A stretch of DNA of 24,000 nucleotides from Synechococcus sp. GreenBA-s (GTDB taxonomy: Bacteria; Cyanobacteriota; Cyanobacteriia; PCC-6307; Cyanobiaceae): the NCBI GenBank assembly GCA_024345855.1, contig JAGQBX010000008.1, forward strand, positions 12,181 through 36,180. The letters are read 5' to 3'. This document shows positions 4,174 through 21,325 of this stretch, one piece after another. The position numbers and the translations under genes are program-made. Under the pieces are notes generated by a model. The model saw nothing but the letters and a program-made list of their open reading frames with translations, did not search any database and was not told the DNA's origin. Every line of letters begins with the position of its first letter. The first letter of the stretch is position 1.

Positions 4174-4177
4174 GGCC

Positions 4178-5332: not shown

Positions 5333-5949
5333 CCGCGGGGCAGGTGGCTCACCACCAGCTGGCGCTGGCCGTCGAGCTGCAACCAGCCCTCCTCCCGAAG
5401 CATCCCCAGCACCCGGGTCACGGTCACCCGGGTGGTGCTCAGGGCAGCGGCGATGTCCTGGTGGGTGAGGCGCAGGTTGAGGCGCAGGCCCTGCTCACAG
5501 GGCTGGCCATACTCCTGGGCCAGCAGCTCCAGGAAGCCCCGCACCCGCTCCTCCACCCGGCGCAGACCCAGCAGCGCAATCAGCGCCTCCGACTGACGCA
5601 TGCGGCTGGCCATCGCCGTGACCAGGCTGCGGGCGATGTGGGGGGTCTCATCCACCTCATCGAGGGGAATGCAGAGCAGGTCGCTGTCGCAGAGGGTGGT
5701 GGCCTCGTAGAGATCGAGGTTGGTGAGGGGTGCTCCGAAGGGTTCGTTGGGTCCGGCCAGCCCCAGCACCAGGTCGTCGCCCTGCTCGGTGATGCAGCTC
5801 AGCTTCACCATGCCGCGTGACACCAGCCAGAGGCTGTTGCGCAGCAGCGGCACCCGGCTGCCGGCGCTGAGGTGCACGAGGTCACGGCGTTGGTAGGTGT
5901 CTTCCAAGGCACTGCGAAAACCCTGCTGACCACTGGAGGCGTAGACCAT
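5329..5949 (-). CDS. ptrA: Crp/Fnr-family transcriptional regulator, PtrA-like
   Basis: cNMP-binding-like N-terminal fold and C-terminal HTH (TTRVTVTRVLGMLREEGWL). Located between phoBR and pstS, as for the phosphate-stress regulator PtrA of marine picocyanobacteria. The symbol is inferred from context. Confidence 0.65.
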   Translation of the reverse strand: MVYASSGQQGFRSALEDTYQRRDLVHLSAGSRVPLLRNSLWLVSRGMVKLSCITEQGDDLVLGLAGPNEPFGAPLTNLDLYEATTLCDSDLLCIPLDEVDETPHIARSLVTAMASRMRQSEALIALLGLRRVEERVRGFLELLAQEYGQPCEQGLRLNLRLTHQDIAAALSTTRVTVTRVLGMLREEGWLQLDGQRQLVVSHLPRG

Positions 5950-6013
5950 GGACCCACTGTGCGGTGGAGTTCACGCCACTGTATGGAGCATCACTGCTGG
6001 CTGAGCAAAGCCG

Positions 6014-6043
6014 GGGTAATGGCCTGGTTAAGGGTGGATTAGC
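6014..6043 (-). promoter_or_regulatory. Putative Pho box upstream of ptrA: three 8-mers phased at 11 bp
   Basis: The minus strand reads GCTAATCC-acc-CTTAACCA-ggc-CATTACCC. The central repeat is a perfect match to the cyanobacterial Pho-box unit PyTTAAPyPy(T/A). The array ends about 64 nt upstream of the ptrA ATG. Confidence 0.4.
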
Positions 6044-6122
6044 CCTTGCCGATGTCGTCCTTTCGGTTCGGCTGTCGTCGCTTCGGCGCCGGGTCCTTGT
6101 GGATTCCGGCCCCCCCATCCAC

Positions 6123-6144
6123 AAAAAAGGGGGCCGAAGCCCCC
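6123..6144 (-). terminator. Rho-independent terminator downstream of pstS
   Basis: The minus strand reads GGGGGC-TTCG-GCCCCC followed by TTTTTT (plus-strand A-run 6123..6128). The stem is a perfect 6-bp GC stem with a UUCG tetraloop. It lies 44 nt after the pstS stop. Confidence 0.8.
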
Positions 6145-6187
6145 GGGTGTGAAGAACTGGAGACGAGTCGCAGCGATCGGCGCCGGA

Positions 6188-7168
6188 TCAGGAGCCGATC
6201 TTGCCCACGGCAGCCTTGGCCTTCTTGAGGATGTCGCCGCGCAGGGGCACGTAGCCGAGGTTGTCGGCCAGACCCTGGGCCTTGTTGCTCAGCATGTAGC
6301 TGAAGGCCTCGCGCAGTTCACCGGCCTTGGCGCCGTTGCCCTTCTGGTAGGCGAGGATCCAGGTGAGGGTGGTGATGGGGTAGCTGTCGGCGCCGGCGGG
6401 GTTCGGATCCTCACCGGCCAGTTGCGCATTCAGGCGGATGTTGTTCAGCGCGGCCGAGCCGCTCTTGAAGCCGGGCTTCACGAACTGGCCGTCCTTGTTC
6501 TGCAGGGCCGCCGCCTTGAGGGGGCCTTTCACGAACGCCTGGTTCACGTAGCCGATCGAGCCGGGGGTATTGGTGAGGATGCCGGAGACGCCCTCGTTGC
6601 CCTTACCGCCCACGCCCACGGGCCACTTGACGCTCTTGCCCTCACCCACCTTGCTCTTCCAGGCAGGCGAGAAGGACGAGAGGGAGTTGGTGAAGGCGAA
6701 GGTGGTGCCGGAGCCGTCCGAACGGTGGGCCACGGAGATCTTGCCCTTACCGCACTTGAGCTGGCTCCAGTCGTTGATGGTGCCGAGGAAGATCTCGGCG
6801 GCCTGCTTCTGGGTCAGCTTGAGGTCACAGCCGGGCTTGTTGTAGGCGATGGCGATGGTGCCGCCCACGGCCGGGAACTGGACCACGCCGCGGCTCACCT
6901 TGGCGGCTTCGGAATCCTTGATCGGCTCGTCGGTGGCGCCGAAATCCACGGTGCCGGCGATGTACTGGCGCACACCGGCGCCGGAACCCACGGACTGGTA
7001 GTTGACCTTGGCACCACCACTAGCGGCCAGATCCTGGAACCAGCGCTGGTAGATGGGGGCGGGGAAGGTGGCGCCGGCGCCGTTGAGGGCAGGACCGGCC
7101 GATGCGACCGTCCCCAGGCTCAGGACGGCCAGGGCGGAACCGGTCAGGGCCTTCGCAGCGAAGGTCAT
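6188..7168 (-). CDS. pstS: Phosphate ABC transporter substrate-binding protein PstS
   Basis: Signal peptide MTFAAKALTGSALAVLSLGTVASA. Hallmark segments GAGATFPAPIYQRW, SVGSGAG, RSDGSGTT. No pstCAB genes are adjacent, which is the common orphan arrangement in picocyanobacteria. Confidence 0.95.
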   Translation of the reverse strand: MTFAAKALTGSALAVLSLGTVASAGPALNGAGATFPAPIYQRWFQDLAASGGAKVNYQSVGSGAGVRQYIAGTVDFGATDEPIKDSEAAKVSRGVVQFPAVGGTIAIAYNKPGCDLKLTQKQAAEIFLGTINDWSQLKCGKGKISVAHRSDGSGTTFAFTNSLSSFSPAWKSKVGEGKSVKWPVGVGGKGNEGVSGILTNTPGSIGYVNQAFVKGPLKAAALQNKDGQFVKPGFKSGSAALNNIRLNAQLAGEDPNPAGADSYPITTLTWILAYQKGNGAKAGELREAFSYMLSNKAQGLADNLGYVPLRGDILKKAKAAVGKIGS

Positions 7169-7220
7169 GGAGCCAGAAATCTGGGTGCCTTCAACGTCTA
7201 ATCAACTGAGGAACCCGCCG

Positions 7221-7261
7221 TCGTTATGGTTTCGTTAAGAAGCCCTCAAGGCCGGGTTAGC
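7221..7261 (-). promoter_or_regulatory. Putative Pho box upstream of pstS: four 8-mers phased at 11 bp
   Basis: The minus strand reads GCTAACCC-ggc-CTTGAGGG-ctt-CTTAACGA-aac-CATAACGA. The repeats resemble those upstream of ptrA (GCTAATCC / CTTAACCA / CATTACCC). The array ends about 52 nt upstream of the pstS ATG. Confidence 0.5.
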
Positions 7262-7311: not shown

Positions 7312-8391
7312 TCAGGTGCCGGCCCCGTAGAACCGCCGTCGCAGCCCCAGGGAGAGGTAGACGAGACTGACCAGCACGGGCACCTCGATCAGCGGACCGA
7401 TCACGCCGGCCAGCGCCTGGCCGGAGCTCACGCCCCAGAGGCTGACGCTCACGGCGATCGCCAGCTCGAAGTTGTTGCCCGCCGCGGTGAAGGCCAGGGT
7501 CGCCGTGTCGGGATAGCTCAACCCCTGGCGAACACCCACGGCGAAGGCCACACCCCACATGATCGCGAAGTAGCAGAGCAGGGGCATCGCGATCCTCACC
7601 ACGGTGCCCAGCTGGGAGGTGATCGCCTGGCCCTGCAGGGCGAACATCACGAGGATCGTGAACAGCAGTCCGTAGAGCGCCAGGGGGCTGATCAGGGGCA
7701 GAAAGCGCTGCTCGTACCAGCGGCGACCCTTGACCCGCAGCCCGATCCGCCGGGTGAGGAACCCCGCCACCAGGGGGATCCCCAGAAAGATCAGCACGGC
7801 CCGGGCAATCTCCCCGGTGGAGATGGCCACCTCCTGGCGATCCCAGCCGAACCAGCCCGGCAGAACCTTGAGGTAGAAGCTGCCCAGCAGCGCATAGAGC
7901 AGCACCTGCAGGATGGAATTCACGGCCACGAGCAGGGCCGCCCCCTCCCGATTGCCCTGGGCCAGATCGATCCAGATCAGCACCATGGCGATGCAGGGGG
8001 CGAGGCCGATCAACACCAGACCGGTGCGGTAAGCGGGCTGATCGGGGAGAAACAGCCAGGCCAGGGCGAACATCAGCGCCGGACCCAGCAGCCACACCAG
8101 CAACAGGGACAGGCGCAACAGTTTGCGGTCGCCCCGGGAGGCACCCATCTCCTCGTAGCGCACCTTGGCCAGAACCGGGTACATCATCAGCAGCAGGCCG
8201 ATGGCAATCGGCAGCGAGGTCTGGCCGACCTTCACGGCATCGAGCAGCGCCTGCAGACCGGGCACCAGCCGGCCGAGCAGCAGGCCGCCGGCCATCGCCA
8301 GCAGGATCCAGACCGGCAGGAAGCGATCGAGCAGGGGGAGCCGGGCCCTGAGGGGATCAGGGGACGGATCCGGGGGGCTGGGGCGTGGCAT
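7312..8391 (-). CDS. acr3: Arsenite efflux permease, ACR3 family
   Basis: About 10 TM segments with ACR3/BART-like sequence (LDRFLPVWILLAMAGGLLLG, GLAPCIAMVLIW, NNFELAIAV). The ATG at 8391..8389 overlaps the arsR TGA (minus strand reads TGATG). The longer ORF reaching 8595 is an artefactual extension through arsR. Confidence 0.9.
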   Translation of the reverse strand: MPRPSPPDPSPDPLRARLPLLDRFLPVWILLAMAGGLLLGRLVPGLQALLDAVKVGQTSLPIAIGLLLMMYPVLAKVRYEEMGASRGDRKLLRLSLLLVWLLGPALMFALAWLFLPDQPAYRTGLVLIGLAPCIAMVLIWIDLAQGNREGAALLVAVNSILQVLLYALLGSFYLKVLPGWFGWDRQEVAISTGEIARAVLIFLGIPLVAGFLTRRIGLRVKGRRWYEQRFLPLISPLALYGLLFTILVMFALQGQAITSQLGTVVRIAMPLLCYFAIMWGVAFAVGVRQGLSYPDTATLAFTAAGNNFELAIAVSVSLWGVSSGQALAGVIGPLIEVPVLVSLVYLSLGLRRRFYGAGT

Positions 8392-8711
8392 CACGGGCAG
8401 GGGGGCGCGGGGGTTCGGCAGTGGTGGGCCAGGCCGCCCAGCCACTGCTGCAGCTGCTCGATGGCCTCGCTCTGGAGCCGGTAGTAGATCCAGCGGCCGT
8501 CCTGGCGGTCGGTGAGCAGGCCCGCCTCCTTCAGCACCTTGAGGTGGAACGACAACTTCGACTGGGCCAGGCCCAGCTCCGCCGTGAGGTCGCACACGCA
8601 GCGCTCGCCGCCGCCCAGGACCTCCAGCACCTGCAGCCGCAGGGGATCGGCGAGGGCCTTGAGCCGCTGCCGGGCCAGCTCGGGGGTGAGGGGGTGATCC
8701 AGAACACGCAT
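8391..8711 (-). CDS. arsR: ArsR/SmtB-family metalloregulator
   Basis: ALADPLRLQVLEVL followed by ERCVCDL (compare the ELCVCDL As(III) site of classical ArsR), then a winged-HTH (SKLSFHLKVLKEAGLL). Translationally coupled to acr3. Confidence 0.9.
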   Translation of the reverse strand: MRVLDHPLTPELARQRLKALADPLRLQVLEVLGGGERCVCDLTAELGLAQSKLSFHLKVLKEAGLLTDRQDGRWIYYRLQSEAIEQLQQWLGGLAHHCRTPAPPCP

Positions 8712-8712
8712 G

Positions 8713-8750
8713 TCATCAAGTTTAATTGATTGATCAACTGGACTTGATCA
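8713..8750. promoter_or_regulatory. Two adjacent ATCAA-N6-TTGAT inverted repeats; candidate ArsR operators in the arsR / gap divergent region
   Basis: Site A is tcATCAA-gtttaa-TTGATtg (8713..8732). Site B is TGATCAA-ctggac-TTGATCA (8731..8750), with perfect 7-bp arms. The site centres are 18 bp apart. This is the only AT-rich patch in the 86-bp intergenic region, and it starts 2 nt from the arsR ATG. Confidence 0.55.
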
Positions 8751-8797
8751 GGCCCCGCGGGGCCCGGCTCCGTCCGTGATCCGCAGCCAGCCACCCC

Positions 8798-9865
8798 ATG
8801 AAACTCGGCATCAACGGTTTCGGCCGCATCGGCCGCCTGGTGTTCCGCGCCCTCTGGGGTCGCCCCGGCATCGAGATCGTGCACATCAACGATCCCGCCG
8901 CCCCTGCCGATGCCGCCGCCCACCTGCTCGGCTTCGACTCGGTGCACGGCCGCTGGGACCGGTCCGTGGAGGCCAGCCCCGACCAGCCGGACCGCTTCAG
9001 CGTGGACGGCCACAGCATCGGCACCAGCCGCCACGCCGATCCGATCGCGGTGCCCTGGCGCGAGGCCGGGGTGGAGCTGGTGCTCGAGTGCAGCGGCCAC
9101 TTCAAGACACCGGACACCCTGCAGCCCTACTTCGATCAAGCCGGCCTGCGGCGGGTGGTGGTGGCCTGCCCGGTGAAGGGCGTGATCGCCGGCGCCGAGG
9201 CCCTCAATGTGGTGTTCGGCATCAACCACGCGCTCTACGACCCCGCCGTGCATCGCCTGCTGACCGGGGCCTCCTGCACCACCAACTGCCTGGCACCGGT
9301 TGTGAAGGTGGTGCACGAGAGCTTCGGCATCCGCCACGGCTCGATCACCACCCTCCACAACGTCACCAACACCCAGGTCGTCGTCGATGGCTTCAAGGGC
9401 GACCTACGCCGGGCCCGTTCCGCCAGCCAGTCGCTGATCCCCACCACCACGGGGTCGGCCAGGGCGATCGGGCTGATCTTCCCCGAGCTGCAGGGTCGCC
9501 TCAACGGCCACGCCGTGCGGGTGCCCCTGCTCAATGGCTCCCTCACCGATGCGGTGTTCGAACTGGAGCGCCCCGTGGGCGTGGAGGAGGTGAATGCCGC
9601 CTTCGCGGCCGCCGCCGCCGGCCCCCTGGCTGGAATCCTCGGCTACGAGACCCGCCCGCTGGTGTCGATCGACTACGTGAACGATCCCCGCAGCGCCATC
9701 GTCGACGGCCCCTCGACGCTGGTGGTGAACGGCACCCAGCTCAAGGTCTACGCCTGGTATGACAACGAGTGGGGCTACAGCTGCCGCCTGGCCGATCTGG
9801 TGAGCCACGTGGTGGCCCTTGAGCCCGGTCACAAACCCGCCGAACCCGTCACGGGGCTGGCCTGA
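8798..9865 (+). CDS. gap: Glyceraldehyde-3-phosphate dehydrogenase, ars-cluster type (partner of ArsJ)
   Basis: [13 protein letters not shown]-binding motif, catalytic SCTTNCLAP, and WYDNEWGYS. arsJ begins 3 nt downstream. Confidence 0.95.
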
Positions 9866-9868
9866 GCC

Positions 9869-11164
9869 ATGGATCAGGGCACGTTCCGCCGCGATCCGCT
9901 CGGCAGCCGGCGCCAGCCCCTGTCGGCGCTGCAGCAGTACATGGTGGTGACAGGCGCCTACTGGGCCTTCACCCTCACCGATGGCGCCCTGCGCATGCTG
10001 GTGGTGTTCCACTTCCACCAGCTCGGCTACTCCACCCTGGAGATCGCCGCTCTGTTTCTGTTTTACGAGTTCTTCGGCATCCTCACCAACCTCACCGGCG
10101 GCTGGCTGGGGGCCCGCTTCGGCCTGCGGCTCACCCTCTGGGCAGGGATGGTGCTGCAGATCCTGGCCCTGCTCATGCTGGTGCCCGTCTCGGCCAGCTG
10201 GCCCAGGCTGGCGTCGGTGGCCTACGTGATGGCGGCCCAGGCCCTCAGCGGCATCGCCAAGGACCTCAACAAGATGAGCGCCAAGAGCGCCATCAAGACG
10301 GTGGTGCCCCAGGTGCCGGGCGAGGAACAGCGCAGCGACCAGCGGCTGTTCCGCTGGGTGGCGATTCTCACCGGCTCCAAGAACGCGCTCAAGGGGGTGG
10401 GCTTCTTCCTCGGTGGCGTGCTGCTGGCCGGCCTGGGCTTCGCGGGCTCCGTGGCGGCCATGGCGGCAGGACTGTTCATCGCCCTGCTCGGCACCCTGGT
10501 GCTGCCTGGCGAGATCGGCCGCATGAAGCAGAAGCCCGGATTCGCCTCGGTGTTCTCCAAGAGCGAGGGCATCAACATGCTCTCCCTGGCGCGCTTCTTC
10601 CTGTTCGGCGCCCGGGATGTGTGGTTCGTGGTGGCGCTGCCGGTGTTCCTCGAAGCCACCCTGGGCTGGAAGTTCTGGGAAGTGGGCGGCTTCCTGGGCC
10701 TGTGGGTGATCGGTTACGGCATCGTGCAGGGGTCCGCCCCGGCCCTGCGTCGCGCCTGGGGCCAGACGGACCCGCCGGGGCCTGCGGCCGTGCAGTTCTG
10801 GAGCGCGCTGCTCACGGCCATCCCGGCCCTGATCGCCGTGGCCCTCTGGCGCGAGGTGGCCCACCCGGGGGTAGCGATCGTGGTGGGCCTGGCGGCCTTC
10901 GGGGCGGTGTTCGCCATGAATTCCTCGATCCACAGCTATCTCGTGCTCGCCTACGCCGACAGTGAATCGGTGAGCCTCAATGTGGGCTTCTATTACATGG
11001 CCAATGCCGCCGGGCGCCTGCTGGGAACCCTGCTCTCCGGGGGCGTGTATCTGCTCGGTGGGATGCAGGCCTGCCTGTGGTGCTCCGCCCTGCTGGTGGG
11101 CCTGTCGTATCTGAGCAGCCGGCGCCTGCCGGCTCCGGGACGGGAAGCAGCGAGCCCGGCCTGA
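9869..11164 (+). CDS. arsJ: MFS organoarsenical (1-arseno-3-phosphoglycerate) efflux permease ArsJ
   Basis: The N-terminus YMVVTGAYWAFTLTDGALRMLVVFHFHQLGYS...LFLFYEFFGILTNL is characteristic of ArsJ-type MFS proteins. Tight coupling to gap supports the call. Confidence 0.85.
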   Translation: MDQGTFRRDPLGSRRQPLSALQQYMVVTGAYWAFTLTDGALRMLVVFHFHQLGYSTLEIAALFLFYEFFGILTNLTGGWLGARFGLRLTLWAGMVLQILALLMLVPVSASWPRLASVAYVMAAQALSGIAKDLNKMSAKSAIKTVVPQVPGEEQRSDQRLFRWVAILTGSKNALKGVGFFLGGVLLAGLGFAGSVAAMAAGLFIALLGTLVLPGEIGRMKQKPGFASVFSKSEGINMLSLARFFLFGARDVWFVVALPVFLEATLGWKFWEVGGFLGLWVIGYGIVQGSAPALRRAWGQTDPPGPAAVQFWSALLTAIPALIAVALWREVAHPGVAIVVGLAAFGAVFAMNSSIHSYLVLAYADSESVSLNVGFYYMANAAGRLLGTLLSGGVYLLGGMQACLWCSALLVGLSYLSSRRLPAPGREAASPA

Positions 11165-11255: not shown

Positions 11256-12239
11256 ATGGTGTCTTCCCCTCCCCAGCCCGTCTCCCTTGCTGAGCCTGGA
11301 GCGTCGGGAGGGCTCAGCAGCTTTCCAGCGATTCAGCGCACCGCCCTCTCCACCCTGCAGGTGAACCTGGGCTACCAGTGCAACCAGGCCTGCAGCCACT
11401 GCCATGTGAACGCCGGCCCCAGCCGCACCGAGCGGATGGACGAGCACACCCTGGCCCTGATCCCGGCGGTGCTGACGGCGCGCCAGATCGGCACGCTGGA
11501 TCTCACCGGCGGTGCCCCCGAACTGCACACCGGCTTCCGCGGGCTCGTGCGGGCCGCCCGCGGTCAGGGCGTGGAGGTGATCGATCGCTGCAACCTCACG
11601 ATCCTGAGCGAGCCAGGCCAGGAGGATCTGGCGGCGTTTCTGGCCGAGCAGGGCGTCACGGTGGTGGCGTCGCTGCCCTGCTATCTGGCGGCCAACGTCG
11701 ATCGCCAGCGCGGCGATGGCGTGTTCGCCCGCAGCATCGCCGGGCTGCAAAGGCTCAACGCCCTCGGGTACGGCCAGCCGGATTCGGGGCTGGCGCTGCA
11801 CCTCGTCTACAACCCCCAGGGGCCGGTGCTGCCCCCAGCCCAGGACCAGCTGGAGGCCGACTACAAGCGGGTGCTCGCCGCCGACTTCAGCATCGTCTTC
11901 AACCAGCTCTTCGCCCTGGCGAACATGCCGATCCAGCGCTTCGGCGCGGTGCTGCGCGCCAGCGGGCAGCTGGCCGACTACCAGGCGCTGCTGCGGGCCA
12001 GCCACCGCGCGGCGAATCTGGAACGGGTGATGTGCCGCTCGCTGATCAGCGTCGACTGGCAGGGGCAGCTCTTCGACTGCGACTTCAACCAGCAGCTGCA
12101 GCTGCCCCTGGCCGGTGGGCCTGCCCATCTGCGGGATCTGCTGCAGCGGGATCCGGCGGGCGATGCGATCCGGGTGGCGGACCACTGCTTCGGATGCACG
12201 GCGGGCAGCGGCTCCAGCTGCGGCGGTGCCCTCGGCTGA
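11256..12239 (+). CDS. arsS: Radical SAM / Cys-rich domain protein, arsenosugar biosynthesis ArsS-like
   Basis: Radical-SAM triad in LQVNLGYQCNQACSHCHV and a C-terminal Cys cluster HCFGCTAGSGSSCGG. Neighboured by arsM and two transferase-like genes. Confidence 0.85.
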   Translation: MVSSPPQPVSLAEPGASGGLSSFPAIQRTALSTLQVNLGYQCNQACSHCHVNAGPSRTERMDEHTLALIPAVLTARQIGTLDLTGGAPELHTGFRGLVRAARGQGVEVIDRCNLTILSEPGQEDLAAFLAEQGVTVVASLPCYLAANVDRQRGDGVFARSIAGLQRLNALGYGQPDSGLALHLVYNPQGPVLPPAQDQLEADYKRVLAADFSIVFNQLFALANMPIQRFGAVLRASGQLADYQALLRASHRAANLERVMCRSLISVDWQGQLFDCDFNQQLQLPLAGGPAHLRDLLQRDPAGDAIRVADHCFGCTAGSGSSCGGALG

Positions 12240-12299: not shown

Positions 12300-12977
12300 T
12301 CAGCCCGACGGAGCGCCTGACCCTCGCCCTGCCGCTTCCCGGCGCCAGTGGTCGGCGAGCTGCCGGAGGTCGCCCTCCAGGCTGGCGAGGTCATCCGGGG
12401 TGTCGATGTCGACCAGGGGCGGCTGCTCCTGCCAGGAGCAGCCGGCGGCAGCCAGACGCCGGCGCGTCTCGGGCAGAACCGCTGGTGTGCTCCAGGGCAT
12501 GGCCGTGAACAGGCTGGGCTGCCAGCGCCGCAGCCCCAGCAGGGCGTAGCCCCCATCCTTGGTTGGCACCAGGGCCGCCTCGTGGCTCTGCAGCTGGACG
12601 GCGGCGGTCCGCAGCTGGGGCACCCCCAGGGCAGGGCAGTCCATGCCGATCAGCAGGACCGCCTCCCCTTCTGCAAGCGCACGGCCGGCGGCCCGCGCCA
12701 TCCGGGCGCCGAGATCCCCATCCCCCTGCGCGCTCCACCGCAGGCCGGGCGGCCACTGGAGCTGATGCCAGATGGGCAGCGGCAGTGCGGGCGCCACGCA
12801 CAGCTCCACCGGCCCCAGATCAGCCGCCACTGCCGTGGCCACCGCCCGCTCCAGCATCGCGGCCGCCAGGGCTGCCGCCCCCTCCGGCCCCAGGGCGGGC
12901 ATCAGGCGCGTCTTCACCTGGCCGGGGAGCGGCGCCTTGGCCATCAGGATCGTGCGGCAGGCTTGGCTCCGGGCCAT
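12300..12977 (-). CDS. DUF2064 / TIGR04282-like (arsenosugar-associated) transferase
   Basis: The N-terminus ILMAKAPLPGQVKTRLMP...GPEGAAALAAAML is typical of DUF2064. ATG 12977 gives the usual short N-terminus; an alternative start exists at 13016. Confidence 0.7.
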   Translation of the reverse strand: MARSQACRTILMAKAPLPGQVKTRLMPALGPEGAAALAAAMLERAVATAVAADLGPVELCVAPALPLPIWHQLQWPPGLRWSAQGDGDLGARMARAAGRALAEGEAVLLIGMDCPALGVPQLRTAAVQLQSHEAALVPTKDGGYALLGLRRWQPSLFTAMPWSTPAVLPETRRRLAAAGCSWQEQPPLVDIDTPDDLASLEGDLRQLADHWRREAAGRGSGAPSG

Positions 12978-13051
12978 GGCGCGGCGATCCAGGGGCATGA
13001 CCCGCCAGGCTGGCATGGGGATCCTTCCGCCCCCGCGCTCCCGCCAACGCC

Positions 13052-14104
13052 ATGACCAGCCTCACCAGCGCCGTTCAGGAGTACTACGGCTCCACCCTCA
13101 CGGGCACCGCGGACCTGCGCACCAGCGCCTGCTGCGATGCCAGCAGCGTGCCCGAGGCCCTCAGGCCCCTGCTGGCCCGCATCCACCCCGAGGTGCTGTC
13201 GCGCTACTACGGCTGCGGCCTGGTGGTCCCGCCATTGCTGCAGGGGGCCCGGGTGCTGGATCTGGGCTGCGGCAGCGGCCGGGATGTCTACCTGCTGGCC
13301 CAGCTGGTGGGCGAGCGCGGCGAGGTGGTGGGCGTCGACATGACCGCCGAGCAGCTGGCGGTGGCGGAGCGCCACCGCACCTTCCATGCCGAGCAGTTCG
13401 GCTACGCCAACGTGCGCTTTCTGGATGGCGCCATCGAGCGGCTTGACGCGCTCGATCTCGAACCCGCCAGCTTCGATCTGGTGATCTCCAACTGCGTTGT
13501 CAACCTGTCGGTCGACAAGCTGGCGGTGCTGCAGGGGGTGCGGCGCCTGCTCAAACCGGGCGGTGAGTTCTACTTCGCCGATGTCTACGCCGATCGGCGC
13601 ATTCCCCAGGCGCTGCGCGACGATCCGGTGCTCTACGGCGAATGCCTGAGCGGGGCCCTCTACTGGAACGACTTCCTGCGGCTGGCGCGGCAGGCCGGCT
13701 TCGCCGATCCGCGGCTGGTGAGTGATCGTCCCCTGCAGGTGACCGACCCGGAGCTGGCCGCCCGCACCGGCACGATCGGCTTCCATTCCGCCACCTATCG
13801 CCTGTTCCACATCGACGACCTGGAGGACGCCTGCGAGGACCACGGCCAGGCGGTGATCTACCGCGGCACGATTCCTGACCACCCCCACCAGCTGCCCTTC
13901 GACAAGCACCACCTGATCGACACCGGCCGGGTGTTTCCGGTGTGTGGCAACACCTACCGCATGCTCGCCGAAAGCCGCCTGGCGAGCCATTTCACGTTCA
14001 TCGGCGACTTCAGCCGCCACTACGGCCTGTTCCCCGGCTGCGGCGGCTCCCTGCCGTTCGACAGCACCACGGCCGAGGCCGCCGCAGGGGGCTCCTGCTG
14101 CTGA
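13052..14104 (+). CDS. arsM: Arsenite S-adenosylmethionine methyltransferase ArsM
   Basis: SAM motif I VLDLGCGSGRDVY. N-terminal cysteines TSACCDAS and YYGCG, later cysteines in YGECLSG and FPVCGNTY, and a C-terminal GGSCC. Confidence 0.9.
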   Translation: MTSLTSAVQEYYGSTLTGTADLRTSACCDASSVPEALRPLLARIHPEVLSRYYGCGLVVPPLLQGARVLDLGCGSGRDVYLLAQLVGERGEVVGVDMTAEQLAVAERHRTFHAEQFGYANVRFLDGAIERLDALDLEPASFDLVISNCVVNLSVDKLAVLQGVRRLLKPGGEFYFADVYADRRIPQALRDDPVLYGECLSGALYWNDFLRLARQAGFADPRLVSDRPLQVTDPELAARTGTIGFHSATYRLFHIDDLEDACEDHGQAVIYRGTIPDHPHQLPFDKHHLIDTGRVFPVCGNTYRMLAESRLASHFTFIGDFSRHYGLFPGCGGSLPFDSTTAEAAAGGSCC

Positions 14105-14111
14105 GCGCCCC

Positions 14112-15371
14112 TCAGCGGTAGAGACGCACCAGGGTGAAGGCGGGCACGCCGAGCCAGTAGGCGAACCGCAACCCCCACATCAGCACGATGGTGCGCCAGA
14201 CGCCATGCCGTTCCCAGCGGCGGCCGGAGGTCAGCACCGGCGGCCGCAGGCAGACCGGGGGACTGAGGCGTCTGAGGCGCGCGGAGAGGGCGATGTCCTC
14301 CATCAGCGGCTGGTCTGGGAAGCCCCCCGCTCTCCCATAGGCCTCGCGGGTCATGAACAGTGCCTGATCGCCGGTGGCGATGCCGCTGAGCCGGGAGCGC
14401 AGGTTGATGGCCCGGCTCACCACGGCGAGCAGACACCGCGCGCTGTCGATGCGCACGTCGAAGCGGCCCCAGCAGCGGGGGCCCCGCAGGCCCTGGCGCA
14501 CCAGCTCCAGGGCGCCGTCGGGCAGACGGGTGTCGGCGTGCAGAAACAGGAGGATCTCTGCCGTTGCCCGCTCGGCCCCGCGCCGCAGCTGGCCCCCCCG
14601 ACCCCGCGGCGCGGCGATCACCCGCAGCCCGGCCTGCTCCAGCCGATCCACGGTGTCGTCCGTGCTTCCGCCATCCACCAGCAGCACCTCGGCGCCGCTG
14701 GCCTGCAGCGCCTGCCAGCTGGGGCTGAACCGGCGCACCGCCTCAGCCTCATTCAGCACCGGGATGATCACGCTGACCCGTGGCTGGCGCCGCCGCCGTT
14801 CGGCCTGGAGCTGGCCCTGGATCTCGGCCTGGATCGCCGCCAGGTCCGCCGACCAGTCGATGGGGCGGGAGCTGGGGATCTCCAGGCCGCGATCCTCCAG
14901 GGCCGCCTCGCGGTCGCCCGGTGGGGCGTGGCGCTCCAGGCAGGCGTCGCGCTCCTGCAGCAGTGCCGCGATCTCCTCCCGGTAGACGCCCAGGAAGTGG
15001 GTGAGCCAGCGGCCCAGCAGGGGATCGGGGTGGCCCGGGGTCCGCGACCCGTGGCGATCCGGCACCGGGAACGCAAACCGCTCCAGTAGCGGGATCGTCT
15101 CAGCGGCAGGCAGCCAGGCATCCTCCGCCACCCAGCGGTTGAGCGTGAACAGGCCGATCGGCAGGCCCCTGGCATCGAGGCTGATGCCGATCAGGTGGGT
15201 GAGCGCAGCCCCTGGGGTTGCCGGCAGGAACAGGTGCAGATGGCCGTGTTCGCCGCCCTCGCGATGGCAGTGGTAGTAGAAGTGCGCCCCCGACTCGGGG
15301 TCGTGGCAATCCCCCGAGGGGTAGTGGCGCTCGGCCTGGATCACGCCACCCCCGGTGATCGCGGCGACCAC
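14112..15371 (-). CDS. Family-2 glycosyltransferase (TIGR04283-like, arsenosugar-associated) fused to a His-rich N-terminal domain of unknown function
   Basis: The GT2 core spans roughly residue 198 onward (VSVIIPVLNEAE, LLVDGGSTDDT, LFLHADT, C-terminal RRWERHGVWRT). Residues 1-135 carry ERHYPSGDCHDPESGAHFYYHCHREGGEHGHLHLF. The frame is continuous and starts at GTG 15371. Confidence 0.75.
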   Translation of the reverse strand: MVAAITGGGVIQAERHYPSGDCHDPESGAHFYYHCHREGGEHGHLHLFLPATPGAALTHLIGISLDARGLPIGLFTLNRWVAEDAWLPAAETIPLLERFAFPVPDRHGSRTPGHPDPLLGRWLTHFLGVYREEIAALLQERDACLERHAPPGDREAALEDRGLEIPSSRPIDWSADLAAIQAEIQGQLQAERRRRQPRVSVIIPVLNEAEAVRRFSPSWQALQASGAEVLLVDGGSTDDTVDRLEQAGLRVIAAPRGRGGQLRRGAERATAEILLFLHADTRLPDGALELVRQGLRGPRCWGRFDVRIDSARCLLAVVSRAINLRSRLSGIATGDQALFMTREAYGRAGGFPDQPLMEDIALSARLRRLSPPVCLRPPVLTSGRRWERHGVWRTIVLMWGLRFAYWLGVPAFTLVRLYR

Positions 15372-15604
15372 GGAGCCGTGGCGCTCGGTGAGACGCAGCC
15401 AGAGGCGCAGGCTGCGGCAGGCCGCCCGGTAGCGCTGCAGCGCCTGTGGATCGAGGCCAGAGCCGGTCAGTGCCCTTGCACAGCAGCAGGGGAGTCAGGC
15501 TATCGGTATCGGCCCCGGCGCTCCTGTCCCCGGGGCTGGGGCTCGGGGACAAACGTCCGCTCACCAGCGTTAGCGTTCCGGCCCAGCCTTCGGCGGACAC
15601 AGCC

Positions 15605-16900
15605 ATGGCCCGCAGAACTCGCCGGATCGCGGTTCTGATGCTCGTGGCGGCTTGGCTGCTGGCGTTGCTCGTGCACGGGTCCAGCGCCGCGCGCGCCCAG
15701 GCGGTGCCGACGGCGGCGGCCTCGGTGCTGCCGCAGCCCACCGCCGCGATCGAGCGCACGGAGCTGCGCGGCGTATGGCTCACCGCCAACGACATGCCCA
15801 CCCTGCGGGACCGCGAGCGCATGCAGGCGACCGTGGCCCAGCTGGCCGCGCTGAACTTCAACACCCTCTATGCCGTGGCCTGGAACGGGGGGCACGCCTA
15901 CTACCCCAGCCCCGTGAGCGAGGGGCGCGGCCTGCAGAGCTTCACCTACCGCGGCCTGCAGGGCCAGGACGTGCTGGCGGAGCTCACCGAGGAGACCCAT
16001 CGGCGCGGCCTGCTGCTGATCCCCTGGTTCGAGTTCGGCTTCATGACGCCCCCCGATGGCGATCTGGCCCGGCGCCATCCCGACTGGCTCACCCGCAGGC
16101 AGGACGGCGGGCGCACCTCGATCAGCGCCGCCGGGGAGGTGGCCTGGCTCAATCCCTTCAGGCCGGAGGTGCAGCAGCTGATCACCGACCTGGTGCTGGA
16201 GGTGGTGGGCACCTACGACGCCGATGGCATCCAGTTCGACGACCACATGAGCCTGCCGCGGGACTTCGGCTACGACCCGTTCACCGTGGCGCTCTACACC
16301 AAGGACACGGGCAAACCCCCGCCGGCCAACCCCGCCGATGCCGCCTGGATGCGCTGGCGCACCGAGCGGATCACCGCCTTCATGGCCCAGCTCAGCCAGG
16401 CGGTGAAGGAGCGCAAGCCCGGAGCGATCGTCTCCGTGTCGCCCAACTACTACGACTTCGCCCTCAAGCTGCAGCTGCAGGACTGGCTGAGCTGGGTGCG
16501 GCGCGGCCTGGTGGATGAACTGCTGATCCAGATCTACCGCCCGGATCTGGAGAGCTTCGTGCCCCAGCTCAGCCGACCGGAGGTGCATGAGAGCCAGCGG
16601 CGTATCCCCACGGCGATCGGAATCATGGGCGGCCAACGCACCCGTCCGGCGCCGCTGGCGCTGATCCAGGCCCAGGTGCAGGCCGCCCGCGAACGCCAGC
16701 TCGGGGTGGCGTTCTTCTACCTCGAAAGCCTCTGGAGCCTCGGCAGCGAGCCCCGCGAGTCGCGCCTGGCGGGGCTGGCCCAGCTGTTCGCGGCCCCGGC
16801 CCAGCGCCAGCGACCGACGTCCCTGGCCGTGCCCCCCGCGGCGGTGGGAGCGCCACAAGCACCGGCACCTCCCCCGCTACCGCCGCCGCCGGGCCCCTAG
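15605..16900 (+). CDS. Secreted glycoside-hydrolase-like protein (GHL10 / DUF187 family) with a Pro-rich tail
   Basis: ATG 15605 gives the signal peptide MARRTRRIAVLMLVAAWLLALLVHGSSAARA. ELRGVWLTANDM...LNFNTLYAVAWNGGHAYYPS is typical of this family. The C-terminus is APAPPPLPPPPGP. Confidence 0.7.
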   Translation: MARRTRRIAVLMLVAAWLLALLVHGSSAARAQAVPTAAASVLPQPTAAIERTELRGVWLTANDMPTLRDRERMQATVAQLAALNFNTLYAVAWNGGHAYYPSPVSEGRGLQSFTYRGLQGQDVLAELTEETHRRGLLLIPWFEFGFMTPPDGDLARRHPDWLTRRQDGGRTSISAAGEVAWLNPFRPEVQQLITDLVLEVVGTYDADGIQFDDHMSLPRDFGYDPFTVALYTKDTGKPPPANPADAAWMRWRTERITAFMAQLSQAVKERKPGAIVSVSPNYYDFALKLQLQDWLSWVRRGLVDELLIQIYRPDLESFVPQLSRPEVHESQRRIPTAIGIMGGQRTRPAPLALIQAQVQAARERQLGVAFFYLESLWSLGSEPRESRLAGLAQLFAAPAQRQRPTSLAVPPAAVGAPQAPAPPPLPPPPGP

Positions 16901-18923: not shown

Positions 18924-19110
18924 GCCATCCAGCGTGAGCCTGCGGCCACCATCCGTGGGCGGCAACGAACAAGGGACGAGCTGCTGATTGGGAAGCTGGT
19001 GGTACCTGGAACTGACCACATCGTGCCCCGTGGGCGCAATGCTGAGGCGGGTCATTGGAGCCCGAAACTGGTCACGAGCTGACCTAACTTGCAGCAAACA
19101 CGCCGCTCCA

Positions 19111-20277
19111 ATGGCCCCAGCCCAGTCCCTGGCTGAGATCCGTCCTGCGCGCCAGAGCCGCACGCTCACGGTTCTGCTGGCCCTGGTGGCCGCCCTGGCG
19201 GTGGGCGTGGCGGGCTACGGCTGGCGCCAGAGCGCCCTGGCCCTGGTGGGGGTGCTGTTCGGGATCAGCCTCTACCACGCCAGTTTCGGCTTTGCCTCCT
19301 CCTACCGGCAGCTTCTGCTGCGGGGGGACGGCCGCGGGGTGCTCGCCCAGGTGCTGATGCTCAGCCTGGCCACCCTGCTGTTCGCACCGTTGCTGATCTC
19401 CGGCGTGGGGCGCGGCGCCGTGGCGCCGTTGGCGCTGCAGGCCGTGATCGGCGCCTTCGTGTTCGGCATCGGCATGCAGCTGGGCAGCGGCTGCGCCTGC
19501 GGCACCCTCTACACGATCGGTGGGGGCAGCGCCATGATGCTGCTCACCCTGGTGAGCTTCTCGGGCGGCTCCTTCGCCGCCAGCCTCAGTAGCCAGCCTT
19601 GGTCGGTGCTGCCGCGGCTCGAGCCCGTGTCGCTGCTGCAGCTGTGGGGCTGGGGCGGCGCGGGCCTGCAGCTGCTGGTGCTGGCCGCCGTGGCCCTGGC
19701 GCTCTGGCGCTGGCAGCGGCCCCGGCTGGCGGAGGAGGGTTTCTGGCCGCGCGCCACGGGCTGGCGCAGCCTGGCGGTGGGCCCCTGGTCGCTGGTGGGA
19801 GGAGCGGTGTCGCTCGCCCTGCTCAACGGCCTTACCGTGGTGCTGGCGGGACGGCCCTGGGGCGTCACCCGGGGCTTCACCCTCTGGGCCGCCAAGCTGG
19901 CCACGCTGCTGGGCTGGAATCCCGACACCAGCCCCCTCTGGAGCCAGGGCCCCCTCGCCGCGTCCCTGCAGGCGAACCTGTTCGCCGACGTGACCTCGGT
20001 GATGAACCTGGGGATCGTGCTCGGTGCGGCCCTGGCGGCGGCCCTGGCGGGGCGGCTGAGCGTGCGCACGCCGCCATCGGCGGCGGCCTGGCTGGCGGCG
20101 CTGCTGGGCGGACTGATGATGGGGTATGGCGCCTGGCTGGCCTTCGGCTGCAACGTGGGCGCCTACTTCAGCGGCATCGCCTCCACCAGCCTGCACGGCT
20201 GGCTCTGGATTACCTGTGCGCTGCTGGGCACGGCGGTGGGGGTGCGCCTGCGCCCCTGGTTCGGCCTGCCCAGCTGA
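19111..20277 (+). CDS. YeeE/YedE-family (thiosulfate / sulfur-compound) transporter
   Basis: Two conserved Cys-containing loops, GMQLGSGCACGTLY and LAFGCNVGAYFSG, and a multi-TM profile. ATG 19111 was chosen; the ORF opens at 18988. Confidence 0.8.
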   Translation: MAPAQSLAEIRPARQSRTLTVLLALVAALAVGVAGYGWRQSALALVGVLFGISLYHASFGFASSYRQLLLRGDGRGVLAQVLMLSLATLLFAPLLISGVGRGAVAPLALQAVIGAFVFGIGMQLGSGCACGTLYTIGGGSAMMLLTLVSFSGGSFAASLSSQPWSVLPRLEPVSLLQLWGWGGAGLQLLVLAAVALALWRWQRPRLAEEGFWPRATGWRSLAVGPWSLVGGAVSLALLNGLTVVLAGRPWGVTRGFTLWAAKLATLLGWNPDTSPLWSQGPLAASLQANLFADVTSVMNLGIVLGAALAAALAGRLSVRTPPSAAAWLAALLGGLMMGYGAWLAFGCNVGAYFSGIASTSLHGWLWITCALLGTAVGVRLRPWFGLPS

Positions 20278-20338: not shown

Positions 20339-21037
20339 TCAGGGCTGGGGCGTCGGGCACTGCTGGGTCTCGAAGTTGCAGCTGTAGATGGCCGGCTTCT
20401 GCCAGTTCAGCGGAATCTCCAGCAGATCCCTCGGGCCACTGATGCCCTGGGCCAGGAACACCACGGCGGCGAGCACGTTGGCACTCACATGCAGGCGGCG
20501 CCAGCGGAGGCTGCGGTGGATCTCCGGCTTCGAGGCCAGCGACAGCAGCAGCAGGCCGCAGAGGCCGATGCCACCCCAGAAGTGCGACTGCCAGAAGGCG
20601 AGCTGGAAGGGGTTGTCGCTGAGGCGGTAGACCTCGCCCTGCACGCCCAGCCCGATCAGGCCCGCCCAGGTGAGCAGGGCGAAGCTGGCCCGGTAGGCCG
20701 CATTGCGGGACCGCCACAGGGCGGCGAAGGCGGCAGCGGTGCCCACCACCACCAGGCTCAGCAGCCCCAGCCGGCTGGGGCCGCCGGCGAATGCGGCCAG
20801 GGGCTTGCTGGTGCCGATTACCACCACCAGGGCCACCAGCACGCCGAGCACCACGGCGCCGCTGAGCAGACGGCCCAGGTCGGCATGGTCGCGGCCAACG
20901 GTGGCCGGATCCTTGCTGTGCTCCAGCCGGCGCCGGCGGGTCTGGAGCGCCAGGCGCAGCACCTGGCCCAGCAGGGGGTAGATCACCACCACGGCCAGGA
21001 CCGGGTGCAGCAGCCAGAGCCAGTCGACGGTCTGCAT
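20339..21037 (-). CDS. Integral membrane protein, DUF4079-like (assignment tentative)
   Basis: N-terminus MQTVDWLWLLHPVLAVVVIYPLLG, about 6 TM segments, and conserved-looking His residues (LHP, RDHADLG, SHFWGG, LHVSANV). Coding-type GC3 usage. Confidence 0.55.
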   Translation of the reverse strand: MQTVDWLWLLHPVLAVVVIYPLLGQVLRLALQTRRRRLEHSKDPATVGRDHADLGRLLSGAVVLGVLVALVVVIGTSKPLAAFAGGPSRLGLLSLVVVGTAAAFAALWRSRNAAYRASFALLTWAGLIGLGVQGEVYRLSDNPFQLAFWQSHFWGGIGLCGLLLLSLASKPEIHRSLRWRRLHVSANVLAAVVFLAQGISGPRDLLEIPLNWQKPAIYSCNFETQQCPTPQP

Positions 21038-21088: not shown

Positions 21089-21325
21089 TCAGTGGCCGCT
21101 GTGGGCACCGCAGCCGCCGGCCTGGCTGGAGGCGCCGCAACCGCCTGCCTCTGCGGCGGCAGCGGTGGGCTTGGCCGGGGCGACCTTGGGCTTGCTGCCC
21201 TTGGCGGCCGGCGTGGTGGCCTTGCCACCGCTGGAGCTCTGGGCCAGGGCTGGAGCCGCCACGGCGGCGCTGCTGATCACGGCGGCGGCCAGGCCGCGGG
21301 CCAGCCGGTCGGACAGGGAGGGCAT
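21089..21325 (-). CDS. Small (78 aa) secreted protein with a duplicated GGCGA motif and an HSGH C-terminus
   Basis: ATG at 21325..21323. Signal peptide MPSLSDRLARGLAAAVISSAAVAAPALA|Q, an Ala/Lys/Pro linker, and the tail AGGCGASSQAGGCGAHSGH. Strongly GC3-biased codons. It is embedded in a longer artefactual 270-aa ORF. Confidence 0.55.
   Translation of the reverse strand: MPSLSDRLARGLAAAVISSAAVAAPALAQSSSGGKATTPAAKGSKPKVAPAKPTAAAAEAGGCGASSQAGGCGAHSGH

Follow-up and report, generated by a model that had tools for sequence, protein, structure and literature searches.

The Mer thiol relay proceeds from periplasmic MerP through the membrane proteins MerT/MerC to cytoplasmic MerA. Removal of adenine from 5'-substituted adenosines is the work of two known kinds of enzyme, MTA/SAH nucleosidase and MTA phosphorylase. 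The glycosyltransferase (GT) family TIGR04283 is named "arsenosugar biosynthesis glycosyltransferase" from genomic association, and we know of no assay behind that name. In the literature the radical SAM enzyme ArsS makes DDMAA (5'-deoxy-5'-dimethylarsinoyl-adenosine), and the steps after it have not been assigned. Bufferins and oxazolins are peptides with modified Cys residues that are exported by the Sec route and bind Cu(I), and their precursor gene lies before the gene of a multinuclear iron enzyme (PMC12452194, PMC11626156). Bufferin clusters consist of the precursor BufA, the multinuclear non-haem iron oxidative (MNIO, DUF692) enzyme BufB, the DUF2063 protein BufC and DoxX (PMC11626156, PMC12452194). 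Here we describe a gene that bears on several of these systems, a fusion of the domain of unknown function DUF6969 with a TIGR04283-family GT, located in an arsenic island of Synechococcus sp. GreenBA-s. The stretch of DNA analysed, hereafter the window, is 24,000 nucleotides of contig JAGQBX010000008.1 (assembly GCA_024345855.1) with a G+C content of 70%.

DUF6969 is a catalogued family that has not been studied, and its union with the GT gives two known families a new architecture, restricted to one lineage. As a whole, the locus is probably best explained, in our judgement, as a complete and translated DUF6969 domain that was recently fused to the GT and that takes part in a metal-dependent step on a thiophilic element or a Cys peptide.

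A complete DUF6969 domain precedes the glycosyltransferase

A preliminary description of the window, made from its letters alone, reported a single 419-codon frame with a GT2 core beginning near residue 198, preceded by an anonymous N-terminal module. The open reading frame (ORF) is as described and the GT2 core starts at residue 199 by both TIGR04283 and PF00535. The module is not anonymous, being catalogued as PF22308 (DUF6969), but it is indeed uncharacterised: its members are without known function and no paper in the literature mentions the family. The features of the gene are as follows, with residues of DUF6969 motifs counted from CTG 15470.

14112..15470 (-): fusion gene as proposed, 452 codons plus stop from the probable start CTG 15470
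14112..15371 (-): 419-aa ORF with a GTG start
15372..15497 (-): N-terminal extension without ATG, GTG or TTG, with an in-frame TGA at 15495-15497
14859..15410 (-): match to DUF6969 (PF22308), residues 21-204 of the 230-aa translation from 15470
15195..15326 (-): His/acidic cluster H49, D54, D57, Y65, Y66, H67, H69, E74, H75, G76, H77, H79, F81 and H92
14787..14855 (-): C-terminal helix of DUF6969, model residues 206-228, now a predicted rigid connector into the GT
14118..14777 (-): TIGR04283-family GT-A (GT2) domain, 254 bits against a cut-off of 182

Translated from CTG 15470, the domain matches PF22308 with an E value of 2e-49 (168.4 bits against a gathering threshold of 27) over profile positions 8-201 of 201; from GTG 15371 the E value is 2.6e-47 (161.5 bits). 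The preliminary description had singled out a His/Cys/acidic patch, ERHYPSGDCHDPESGAHFYYHCHREGGEHGHLHLF, residues 14-48 of the 419-aa ORF, as resembling a metal site. Its His, Asp and Glu residues are strongly conserved across 83 sequences of the family and have the look of a metal centre, but its Cys residues are not conserved. Invariant among these sequences are H75, G76, H77, H79, N111, W113, V114, W155, R174 and D175, and conservation is at least 90% for H49, P51, D54, D57, Q63, Y65, Y66, H67, H69, E74, F81, H92, D99, R112, R194 and S200. The window protein keeps 10 of the 10 invariant columns and carries the family motif HYP..D..D....YYHxH....EHGHxHxF together with NRWV, W and RD, its sole deviation being a His at the near-invariant Q63.

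An AlphaFold2 model of the domain (pLDDT 91.8, pTM 0.89; full-length protein pLDDT 93.2, pTM 0.83) has a long N-terminal helix, strands at 63-69, 75-83, 90-98 and 104-108 with His residues, and a helical C-terminal half. The His/acidic cluster is predicted to lie on three adjacent beta-strands (63-69, 75-83 and 90-98). In the model the helix at 206-228 passes straight into GT strand beta-1 at 232-238. What had been taken for a charged helical linker therefore belongs to DUF6969: the invariant R-D of an "ERD" motif lies in it, and it is the domain's own C-terminal helix that meets the GT. The original observation of an extra module was real, but its limits were misplaced at the N-terminus and at the linker.

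DUF6969 is present in the genomes of at least 594 species, mostly Proteobacteria, and it is nearly always a stand-alone protein of 207-286 aa. Compared with stand-alone members from Roseovarius salinarum, Paracoccus salsus and Sneathiella chungangensis, the window domain is alike in EHGHxH, NRWV, W and RD and in predicted architecture (N-terminal helix, four-strand His-bearing sheet, helical C-terminal half), but it runs on into a GT-A domain without a stop and its canonical start codon is missing. The only other fusion that might hint at function is a tandem of two complete DUF6969 domains in P0236 (479 aa, European Nucleotide Archive metagenome), which may mean that the domain works as a dimer.

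From the conservation pattern and the model we infer for DUF6969 a cytoplasmic domain of some 230 aa with six to seven conserved His residues plus Asp and Glu, and with conserved Arg, Asn and Trp nearby. It would bind at least one transition-metal ion and be catalytic, with the Arg, Asn and Trp forming a putative substrate pocket. A more specific identity, a metal-dependent hydrolase or lyase, had been suggested for the module and finds no support in sequence and fold searches, which returned no similarity to a hydrolase, lyase, nucleosidase or phosphorylase. Foldseek gave no PDB fold relative (E never below 0.7, TM never above 0.2), a profile search of the PDB with DUF6969 gave no match, and no second Pfam family recurred among the 83 members at E up to 5. 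A cupin or other metal-dependent hydrolase or lyase fold was rejected as a candidate since Foldseek, PDB profile and Pfam scans were all without a match, the full-length model being matched via its GT only. The profile and structure searches that had been proposed for the module were thus productive in one respect (PF22308) but not in the other (no PDB fold match).

Coding sequence extends upstream of GTG 15371

The frame is open for 41 codons 5' of GTG 15371, up to the TGA at 15495-15497, and there is no ATG, GTG or TTG among them, just as the preliminary description had it. Its further claim that GTG 15371 is the first usable start is contradicted by several lines of evidence. The extension, LTGSGLDPQALQRYRAACRSLRLWLRLTERHGS, aligns with the N-termini of the stand-alone homologues P0001-P0003, and when the upstream codons are included the PF22308 match reaches back from profile position 31 to 8-9. 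GC by codon position from 15470 is coding-like (0.76/0.61/0.88), third-position GC (GC3) being 0.88-0.89 in the N-module and 0.62 upstream of the TGA. Additionally, GTG 15371 is replaced by GTC in L001, a 90%-identical orthologue from a sister genome. By homology and codon composition, then, GTG 15371 is not the real N-terminus and coding continues upstream.

The only in-frame near-cognate codons of the extension are four CTGs (15470, 15440, 15410 and 15398). Because there is no ATG, GTG or TTG upstream, we propose CTG 15470 as the likeliest start, which would give a protein of about 452 aa. This CTG (15470-15468), the first of the four, is kept in L001 and in L005 (a more distant relative described below), and initiation there would make the N-terminus three residues longer than that of P0002. 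A programmed frameshift from an upstream start was also considered and rejected; a near-cognate start is preferred because the window has no ATG there, the upstream region has indels relative to L001, and a slippery or stop context is absent. In stand-alone cyanobacterial DUF6969 genes the ATG start overlaps the stop of the upstream gene (TGATG). L001 retains this ancestral TGATG overlap, its ATG lying one frame off the DUF6969 frame, and ATG, GTG and TTG are absent for 117 codons after its in-frame TGA. There is in consequence a conserved coding region without a canonical start in three assemblies (window 15372-15497; L001 1873-2227).

The missing start has a practical cost for annotation in all three genomes. 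As there is no canonical start, public gene calls for the two other fusion proteins, P0021 and P0018, begin internally and lose the His cluster; they shorten the fusion protein by about 80-120 residues, and on the contig of P0018 a spurious antisense ORF is called instead. A sigma-70 scan of 14000-15700 found no promoter-like site. That scan, which also covered terminators, gave one terminator-like hairpin within the coding sequence of DUF6969 at 15078-15092 (-), formed by CCGCTACTGGAGCGG and then TTTGCGTTCC, which is probably due to chance (one found against 0.2 expected).

The N-terminal module is under purifying selection

The loss of a start codon raises the alternative that DUF6969 is a decaying relic, untranslated, with a short GT made from GTG 14771 or nearby and the long frame a by-product of the 70% G+C. 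The start codons missing for 41 codons in the window and 117 in L001 fit this account, as do the internal starts chosen by gene callers for P0018 and P0021 and the commonness of long spurious ORFs in the window. We therefore compared the window with L001 by Nei-Gojobori counts, using binomial p values against neutrality. The DUF6969 region has 29 synonymous and 30 non-synonymous substitutions (dN/dS 0.33), and the GT has 34 and 18 (dN/dS 0.18, p = 1.9e-8). The higher ratio in DUF6969 would agree with decay, but for the whole N-module dN/dS is significantly below 1 (p = 3.8e-5), and by these counts both the N-module and the GT are under purifying selection.

An insertion of 39 low-complexity residues rich in Gly, Ser, Ala and Pro, which might also be read as decay, sets the sister sequences (L001 about 2330-2446, P0021 and P0018) apart from the window, which is without it. 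The indel is in frame and falls in a low-confidence surface loop (model residues about 131-150). Beyond this, no invariant residue has been lost, GC by codon position has a coding-like pattern from 15470 on, the GT has lost its ATG, and GTG 14771 lies inside strand beta-1. A relic is improbable on this evidence, and the earlier view that the extra domain is real and translated agrees with the substitution pattern, the invariant residues and GC3.

Origin and rarity of the fusion

Residues 199-418 match the whole TIGR04283 profile (positions 1-221 of 221), and residues 200-292 match PF00535. Foldseek matches the GT to PcManGT, WrtF, ArnC and GpgS over about 200-240 columns with an E value of 2e-10. 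As to a role of this GT in arsenosugar formation, these matches support the GT-A fold alone. Stand-alone TIGR04283 proteins are mostly 220-240 aa, as had been stated earlier; in contrast to them the window GT lacks its own start codon and is preceded at its N-terminus by a DUF6969 of 230 aa, while it shares with them the ArsS/TIGR04282/ArsM-like neighbourhood typical of the family. ArsS (TIGR04167) and a TIGR04282 protein both lie within 3 kb and score above their cut-offs.

The nearest non-fused arrangement is that of L005 (GCA_943368105, 64% identity). There DUF6969 (8001-8738) and the GT (8725-9420) are separate genes in different frames with a 14-nt overlap, the GT has its own ATG, and ArsM, DUF2064 and ArsS lie 2-5 kb beyond it. 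In the alignment of the junction with L005, the Vulcanococcus lineage has lost a segment that includes the DUF6969 stop and the GT ATG, leaving ...IQAEIQGQLQAERRRRQPRVSVIIPVLNE. The ancestor would accordingly have had two translationally coupled genes, DUF6969 then GT, and remodelling of the junction would have removed the stop of the one and the ATG of the other. With both gone, the GT can be made only as the tail of a DUF6969 protein. The gene would further have lost its canonical start, with translation now most likely beginning at CTG 15470.

The short junction indel region is nearly all that distinguishes the nearest non-fused relative, and a frameshift error at the junction of a single assembly could falsely join two genes. 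To this explanation we give next to no credence: the same in-frame junction occurs with the same synteny in three assemblies, namely the window, L001/L009 (a Logan assembly and an NCBI metagenome-assembled genome (MAG)) and P0018, and they differ by independent substitutions, the window being 89-90% identical in amino acids to the others. We looked for further fusions among 87 word-seeded hits and 916 profile hits, and among the best 150 of 1.84 billion cluster representatives. There were none: P0021 and P0018 alone joined both domains, the fusion forming one cluster among those 1.84 billion. Judged from these sequences, the fusion is young, rare and confined to a Vulcanococcus-like, genus-level lineage.

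Association of DUF6969 with arsenosugar genes

The nearest genome to the window is that of Vulcanococcus limneticus LL, a freshwater picocyanobacterium whose syntenic island has amino-acid identities of 96% for ArsJ, 95% for ArsM and 94% for ArsS. The arsenic island that precedes the fusion gene contains the following.

7312-8595 (-): Acr3-type SBF protein
8391-8711 (-): ArsR
8798-9865 (+): GAPDH
9869-11164 (+): ArsJ
11256..12239 (+): ArsS radical SAM enzyme, 445.5 bits against a cut-off of 300
12300..13016 (-): TIGR04282/DUF2064 protein, 192.6 bits against a cut-off of 134
13052..14104 (+): ArsM-like SAM methyltransferase, convergent with the fusion gene; its best NCBIfam matches are arsenite methyltransferases, all below cut-offs

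The Acr3-type ORF overlaps ArsR on the same strand, and its true start is probably internal.

We examined the association of DUF6969 with such genes from both sides. Within 10 kb of DUF6969, an arsenosugar-type gene (ArsS, ArsM or a relative of TIGR04282 or TIGR04283) occurs in 10 of 80 genome loci (L009, L010, L012, L027, L040, L041, L059, L071, L072 and L081), and L005, L089 and L094, found by other routes, are three more arsenic-linked loci. The ten genome loci span Cyanobacteria and alpha-, beta- and gammaproteobacteria and represent at least five lineages. This association is real because its frequency is far above chance for genes as rare as ArsS. For example, in L089 DUF6969 is a separate gene inside an arsM/DUF2064/GT2/arsC/arsS cluster, while in L072 a peptide gene and DUF6969 are divergent from, and 1.1 kb apart from, ArsS, GT and TIGR04282. 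In L041 (Ca. Accumulibacter) DUF6969, a 65-aa ORF, the GT and TIGR04282 lie on one strand; the small ORF (7047-7244), between DUF6969 and TIGR04283/TIGR04282, has a zf-HC2-like anti-sigma motif (MLTCREVTQLLSE...CRGCAHF). A "Rosetta-stone" search for homologues of the module as separate genes near arsS or arsM, as the preliminary description had proposed, is thus positive, with the overlapping gene of L005, the in-cluster gene of L089 and several proteobacterial lineages within 10 kb. The same description had held that a module widespread and without arsenic association would speak against its reading; DUF6969 is widespread, but its association with arsenic genes is real though limited to a minority of loci.

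That reading makes DUF6969 a metal-dependent hydrolase or lyase acting on DDMAA, which it would strip of adenine or activate at the ribose before passing the product to the GT. The reading draws on the fusion to or overlap with the GT, on the presence of DUF6969 inside arsM/arsS/GT clusters of several lineages, on the conserved, enzyme-like polar site and on the unassigned steps after ArsS. The reciprocal survey, however, gives a different picture. Among metagenomic ArsS loci of at least 8 kb (36 of 80), TIGR04283 is found in 23 of 36 and TIGR04282 in 22 of 36, but DUF6969 in only 1 of 36, which makes it an occasional accessory rather than a core member of these clusters; and at some 70 of the 80 DUF6969 loci sampled, no gene of arsenosugar type lies within 10 kb. 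Unlike the known adenine-removing enzymes, MTA/SAH nucleosidase and MTA phosphorylase, to which DUF6969 has no Pfam, PDB-sequence or Foldseek similarity, it resembles no nucleosidase, phosphorylase or hydrolase fold. The conserved partners of DUF6969 are a Cys peptide and a YeeE-like protein, and the fusion is limited to one genus-level lineage. Accessory status together with the missing enzyme resemblance makes a role in adenine removal or ribose activation unlikely, and the model as a whole very doubtful. What survives of the initial interpretation is a putative metal-site domain linked functionally to an arsenic cluster; the step assigned to it is probably wrong.

A Cys-repeat peptide and a YeeE-like protein as recurrent partners

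The commonest partner of DUF6969 is encoded directly upstream on the same strand; it is a small protein whose signal is of the Sec or lipoprotein kind and in which Cys motifs recur. A motif scan placed Cys-repeat ORFs at 33 of 86 DUF6969 loci, and in 22 cases the ORF is directly upstream, within 400 bp and on the same strand. The control scan found them at 3 of 80 ArsS loci, one of the three being the locus with DUF6969. Those of Proteobacteria have NPCAAK or KCGA repeats (L072, L073, L065, L070, L063, L081, L053, L012, L014 and L027), and those of Marinobacter, Hahella, Hyphomicrobium and Nitrosomonas carry a SoxA/TsdA-like mono-haem domain with repeats on either side. The picocyanobacterial peptide has the form MPSLSxRLRxGL...GGCG...GGCGA(H/ER), and its gene ends in a stop that overlaps the ATG of DUF6969 (L002, L089, L010, L011 and L090), as a TGATG stop/start overlap in L002 and L089. 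The signal-peptide halves of the cyanobacterial and Burkholderiales peptides can be aligned. Neither Pfam nor NCBIfam has a model that matches these peptides, and the literature is silent on them and on NPCAAK repeats.

An initial label for the commonest neighbour, "cytochrome c" (29 loci), put the emphasis in the wrong place: the BLAST cluster is held together by the NPCAAK repeats, and the SoxA/TsdA-like haem domain occurs in some members only. The exported NPCAAK/KCGA/CNPCNPCAAK repeat family is widespread, with at least 223 clusters, and some of its members embed a SoxA/TsdA-like mono-haem cytochrome c between repeat blocks. Examples of this family are found at the following positions.

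L072 9540-9815; L073 158-466; L065 9580-9906; L070 400-687; L053 9590-9952
L012 9327-9650; L052 9022-9900; L017 9113-9895; L173 4001-5008

A second partner is a YeeE/YedE-like Sulf_transp gene, found with DUF6969 at 14 of 86 loci. Its scores stay under the YedE/FdhT and TsuA cut-offs, and it is often convergent with DUF6969 or in its operon, sometimes with DUF302. All eight loci of the cyanobacterial clade have either an adjacent YeeE-like gene or arsenosugar-type genes nearby. In the picocyanobacterial loci L002 (8650-10413), L090 (4151-5281) and L011 (10601-11761) the peptide and DUF6969 genes are convergent with a YeeE-like gene, their 3' ends overlapping, and arsenosugar genes are not nearby; L002 further encodes, behind its YeeE-like gene, a class-I SAM methyltransferase of 263 aa and of generic UbiE/ArsM type.

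Both partners are present in the window, on the far side of the fusion gene.

15602..16900 (+): GHL10 glycosyl-hydrolase-like gene, divergent from the fusion gene, with a probable ATG at 15602, about 130 nt from CTG 15470; the same in L001
Between GHL10 and the YeeE-like gene: two CrcB genes, then DUF389
18988..20277 (+): YeeE/YedE-like Sulf_transp membrane protein, PF04143 E 3e-63, below the YedE/FdhT and TsuA cut-offs
20339..21037 (-): DUF4079 membrane protein, in the place after the peptide gene that DUF6969 holds in relatives
21089..21325 (-): secreted Cys-motif peptide of 78 aa, MPSLSDRLARGL...GGCGASSQAGGCGAHSGH, matched by tblastn to the L090, L011 and L002 peptides at E 2e-13 to 1e-10

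The window peptide, a signal peptide followed by ...EAGGCGASSQAGGCGAHSGH, is encoded convergently with the YeeE-like gene and matches the L090 peptide at E 2e-13. It is not annotated, being hidden in a spurious 270-aa ORF and overlapping the upstream part of a PilZ ORF on the opposite strand. The order of peptide then DUF4079, with DUF6969 moved away to a place before the GT, is also found in L005 and L009. For GHL10, the mechanical start at GTG 15446 looks too early; a signal-peptide-like MARRTRRIAVLML begins at ATG 15602, probably its true start.

Three loci reached through NPCAAK peptides extend this picture. In L172 the peptide (P0377) lies directly upstream of a bufferin cluster of BufA1, MNIO PF05114, HvfC_N/DUF2063 and DoxX (4001-6550), with thioredoxin, DsbD and an ECF sigma/anti-sigma pair on the other side. 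L173 has the order peptide, NPCAAK-cytochrome, DUF6969, thioredoxin and DsbD, and its full-length DUF6969 (4990-5892, a Nitrosomonas MAG; hidden Markov model (HMM) E 1e-102) is absent from gene calls. L174 (95-4321) places an ArsM-like methyltransferase, PHO4 and an AhpD-like CMD protein beside an NPCAAK-cytochrome and an NPCAAK peptide; for DUF6969 there is nothing clearer than a 20-bit HMM hit, and the locus is a second, DUF6969-independent link between peptide and arsenic.

The arrangement of the module in relatives of the window gene invites comparison with bufferins, since a gene for a Sec-signal Cys-repeat protein stands directly upstream of one for a cytoplasmic, His/acid-rich putative metalloenzyme. 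At its fullest the comparison would make DUF6969 a new multinuclear-metal oxidative enzyme that modifies the Cys residues of the peptide before export, yielding a periplasmic metal(loid)-binding peptide, with the GT fusion a later recruitment. The gene order of precursor then enzyme with overlapping stop and start fits this proposal. Sec/lipoprotein signals and Cys repeats (NPCAAK, KCGA, GGCG) are the combination that marks bufferin and Buf_EGKCG/oxazolin precursors (PMC12452194), and the true bufferin cluster of L172 has the gene of an NPCAAK peptide directly upstream. With its seven conserved His and four conserved acidic residues, DUF6969 would have enough ligands for a multinuclear site, and thioredoxin and DsbD genes follow DUF6969 in L173.

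Yet in contrast to MNIO enzymes, DUF6969 has no MNIO/DUF692 homology and is predicted to be no TIM barrel (four main strands plus helices); PF05114 has no match in the window protein or the 83 members at E up to 5. A DUF2063-type partner is not recurrent among the neighbours of DUF6969, occurring only in L172 with a true MNIO and no DUF6969, nor are a protease and an exporter. An adjacent peptide is missing from more than half of the DUF6969 loci, and while a Cys-containing precursor is directly upstream in at least 22 related loci, the fused gene of the window is without one, its peptide being at 21325-21089. We consider such tailoring unlikely. The same limited credence is given to the broader proposition that DUF6969 might be an unrecognised class of multi-His metalloenzyme, of a fold absent from the PDB, that either tailors the Sec-exported peptides with Cys repeats (NPCAAK, KCGA, GGCG) or takes over cargo from them, and so might provide a second, MNIO-independent bufferin-like route linked to arsenic biotransformation.

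A thiophilic-element module and its recruitment to the arsenic island

Rather than adenine removal, we favor a role of DUF6969 in the metal-dependent handling of thiophilic elements (the As, S/Se and Cu class) or of their Cys peptide. The native module of Cyanobacteria and Proteobacteria would comprise the exported Cys-repeat peptide directly upstream, DUF6969 and often a YeeE/YedE-like membrane protein, and it appears to have landed repeatedly beside arsenic-methylation and arsenosugar genes. It is these module partners, together with the arsenic neighbours, that make the handling of a thiophilic element or Cys peptide the likeliest function. Both this functional class and metal binding are what we infer for the family. 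In the window, DUF6969 would be co-expressed with, and here tethered to, the GT of an arsenic island, and it is unlikely to be a core arsenosugar enzyme; the fusion would mainly fix co-expression and proximity with the GT rather than add a pathway step.

This proposal may take either of two sharper forms: the bufferin-like tailoring of peptide Cys residues discussed above, or a version, offered purely by analogy, that would place DUF6969 at the cytoplasmic end of a Mer-like thiol relay. A periplasmic Cys peptide, a Cys-bearing YeeE-like membrane protein and a cytoplasmic metal-site protein would form the same three-compartment series, with detoxifying methyltransferases adjoining. However, there is no homology to any Mer protein, and what DUF6969 conserves is His, not Cys.

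Several observations weigh against our interpretation. CTG is a rare initiator, and the 33 codons upstream of GTG 15371 taken alone have four synonymous and two non-synonymous substitutions (p = 0.065), which is merely suggestive because only six substitutions are involved. TIGR04283-like GTs are fused elsewhere to a second GT2, DUF2064/TIGR04282, VTT/DedA or DUF2238 (P0088-P0235), and never to DUF6969 except in the Vulcanococcus-like lineage; such a frequent fusion partner weakens the fusion as functional evidence. In the window 5.6 kb separate the peptide gene from DUF6969, and it is DUF4079 that follows the peptide, while a clear DUF6969 is absent from two of the three NPCAAK-peptide loci described above. 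Finally, more than half of the sampled DUF6969 loci, those of an Azospirillum/Rhodospirillales clade, have no peptide, YeeE or arsenic genes nearby, their neighbours being Mla-type transporter genes, DUF2336, cytochrome c and APRT. Given this clade, a single function derived from genomic context is provisional, and the module covers part of the family only.

The fusion is nonetheless one of very few functional clues for DUF6969, an orphan family found in at least 594 species. Its accessory rather than core place in arsenosugar clusters makes DUF6969 unlikely to be the missing enzyme after ArsS. At the same time, the analysis brings to light an undescribed two- or three-gene module (Cys-repeat peptide, DUF6969, YeeE-like protein) that recurs by arsenic, sulfur and bufferin-type genes. 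If it is true that this module makes or serves a thiol-peptide metallophore, bufferin logic would extend to a second enzyme family and to picocyanobacteria. The main value of the locus is consequently as an entry point to an orphan family of putative metalloproteins and to the Cys-repeat peptide module that accompanies it.

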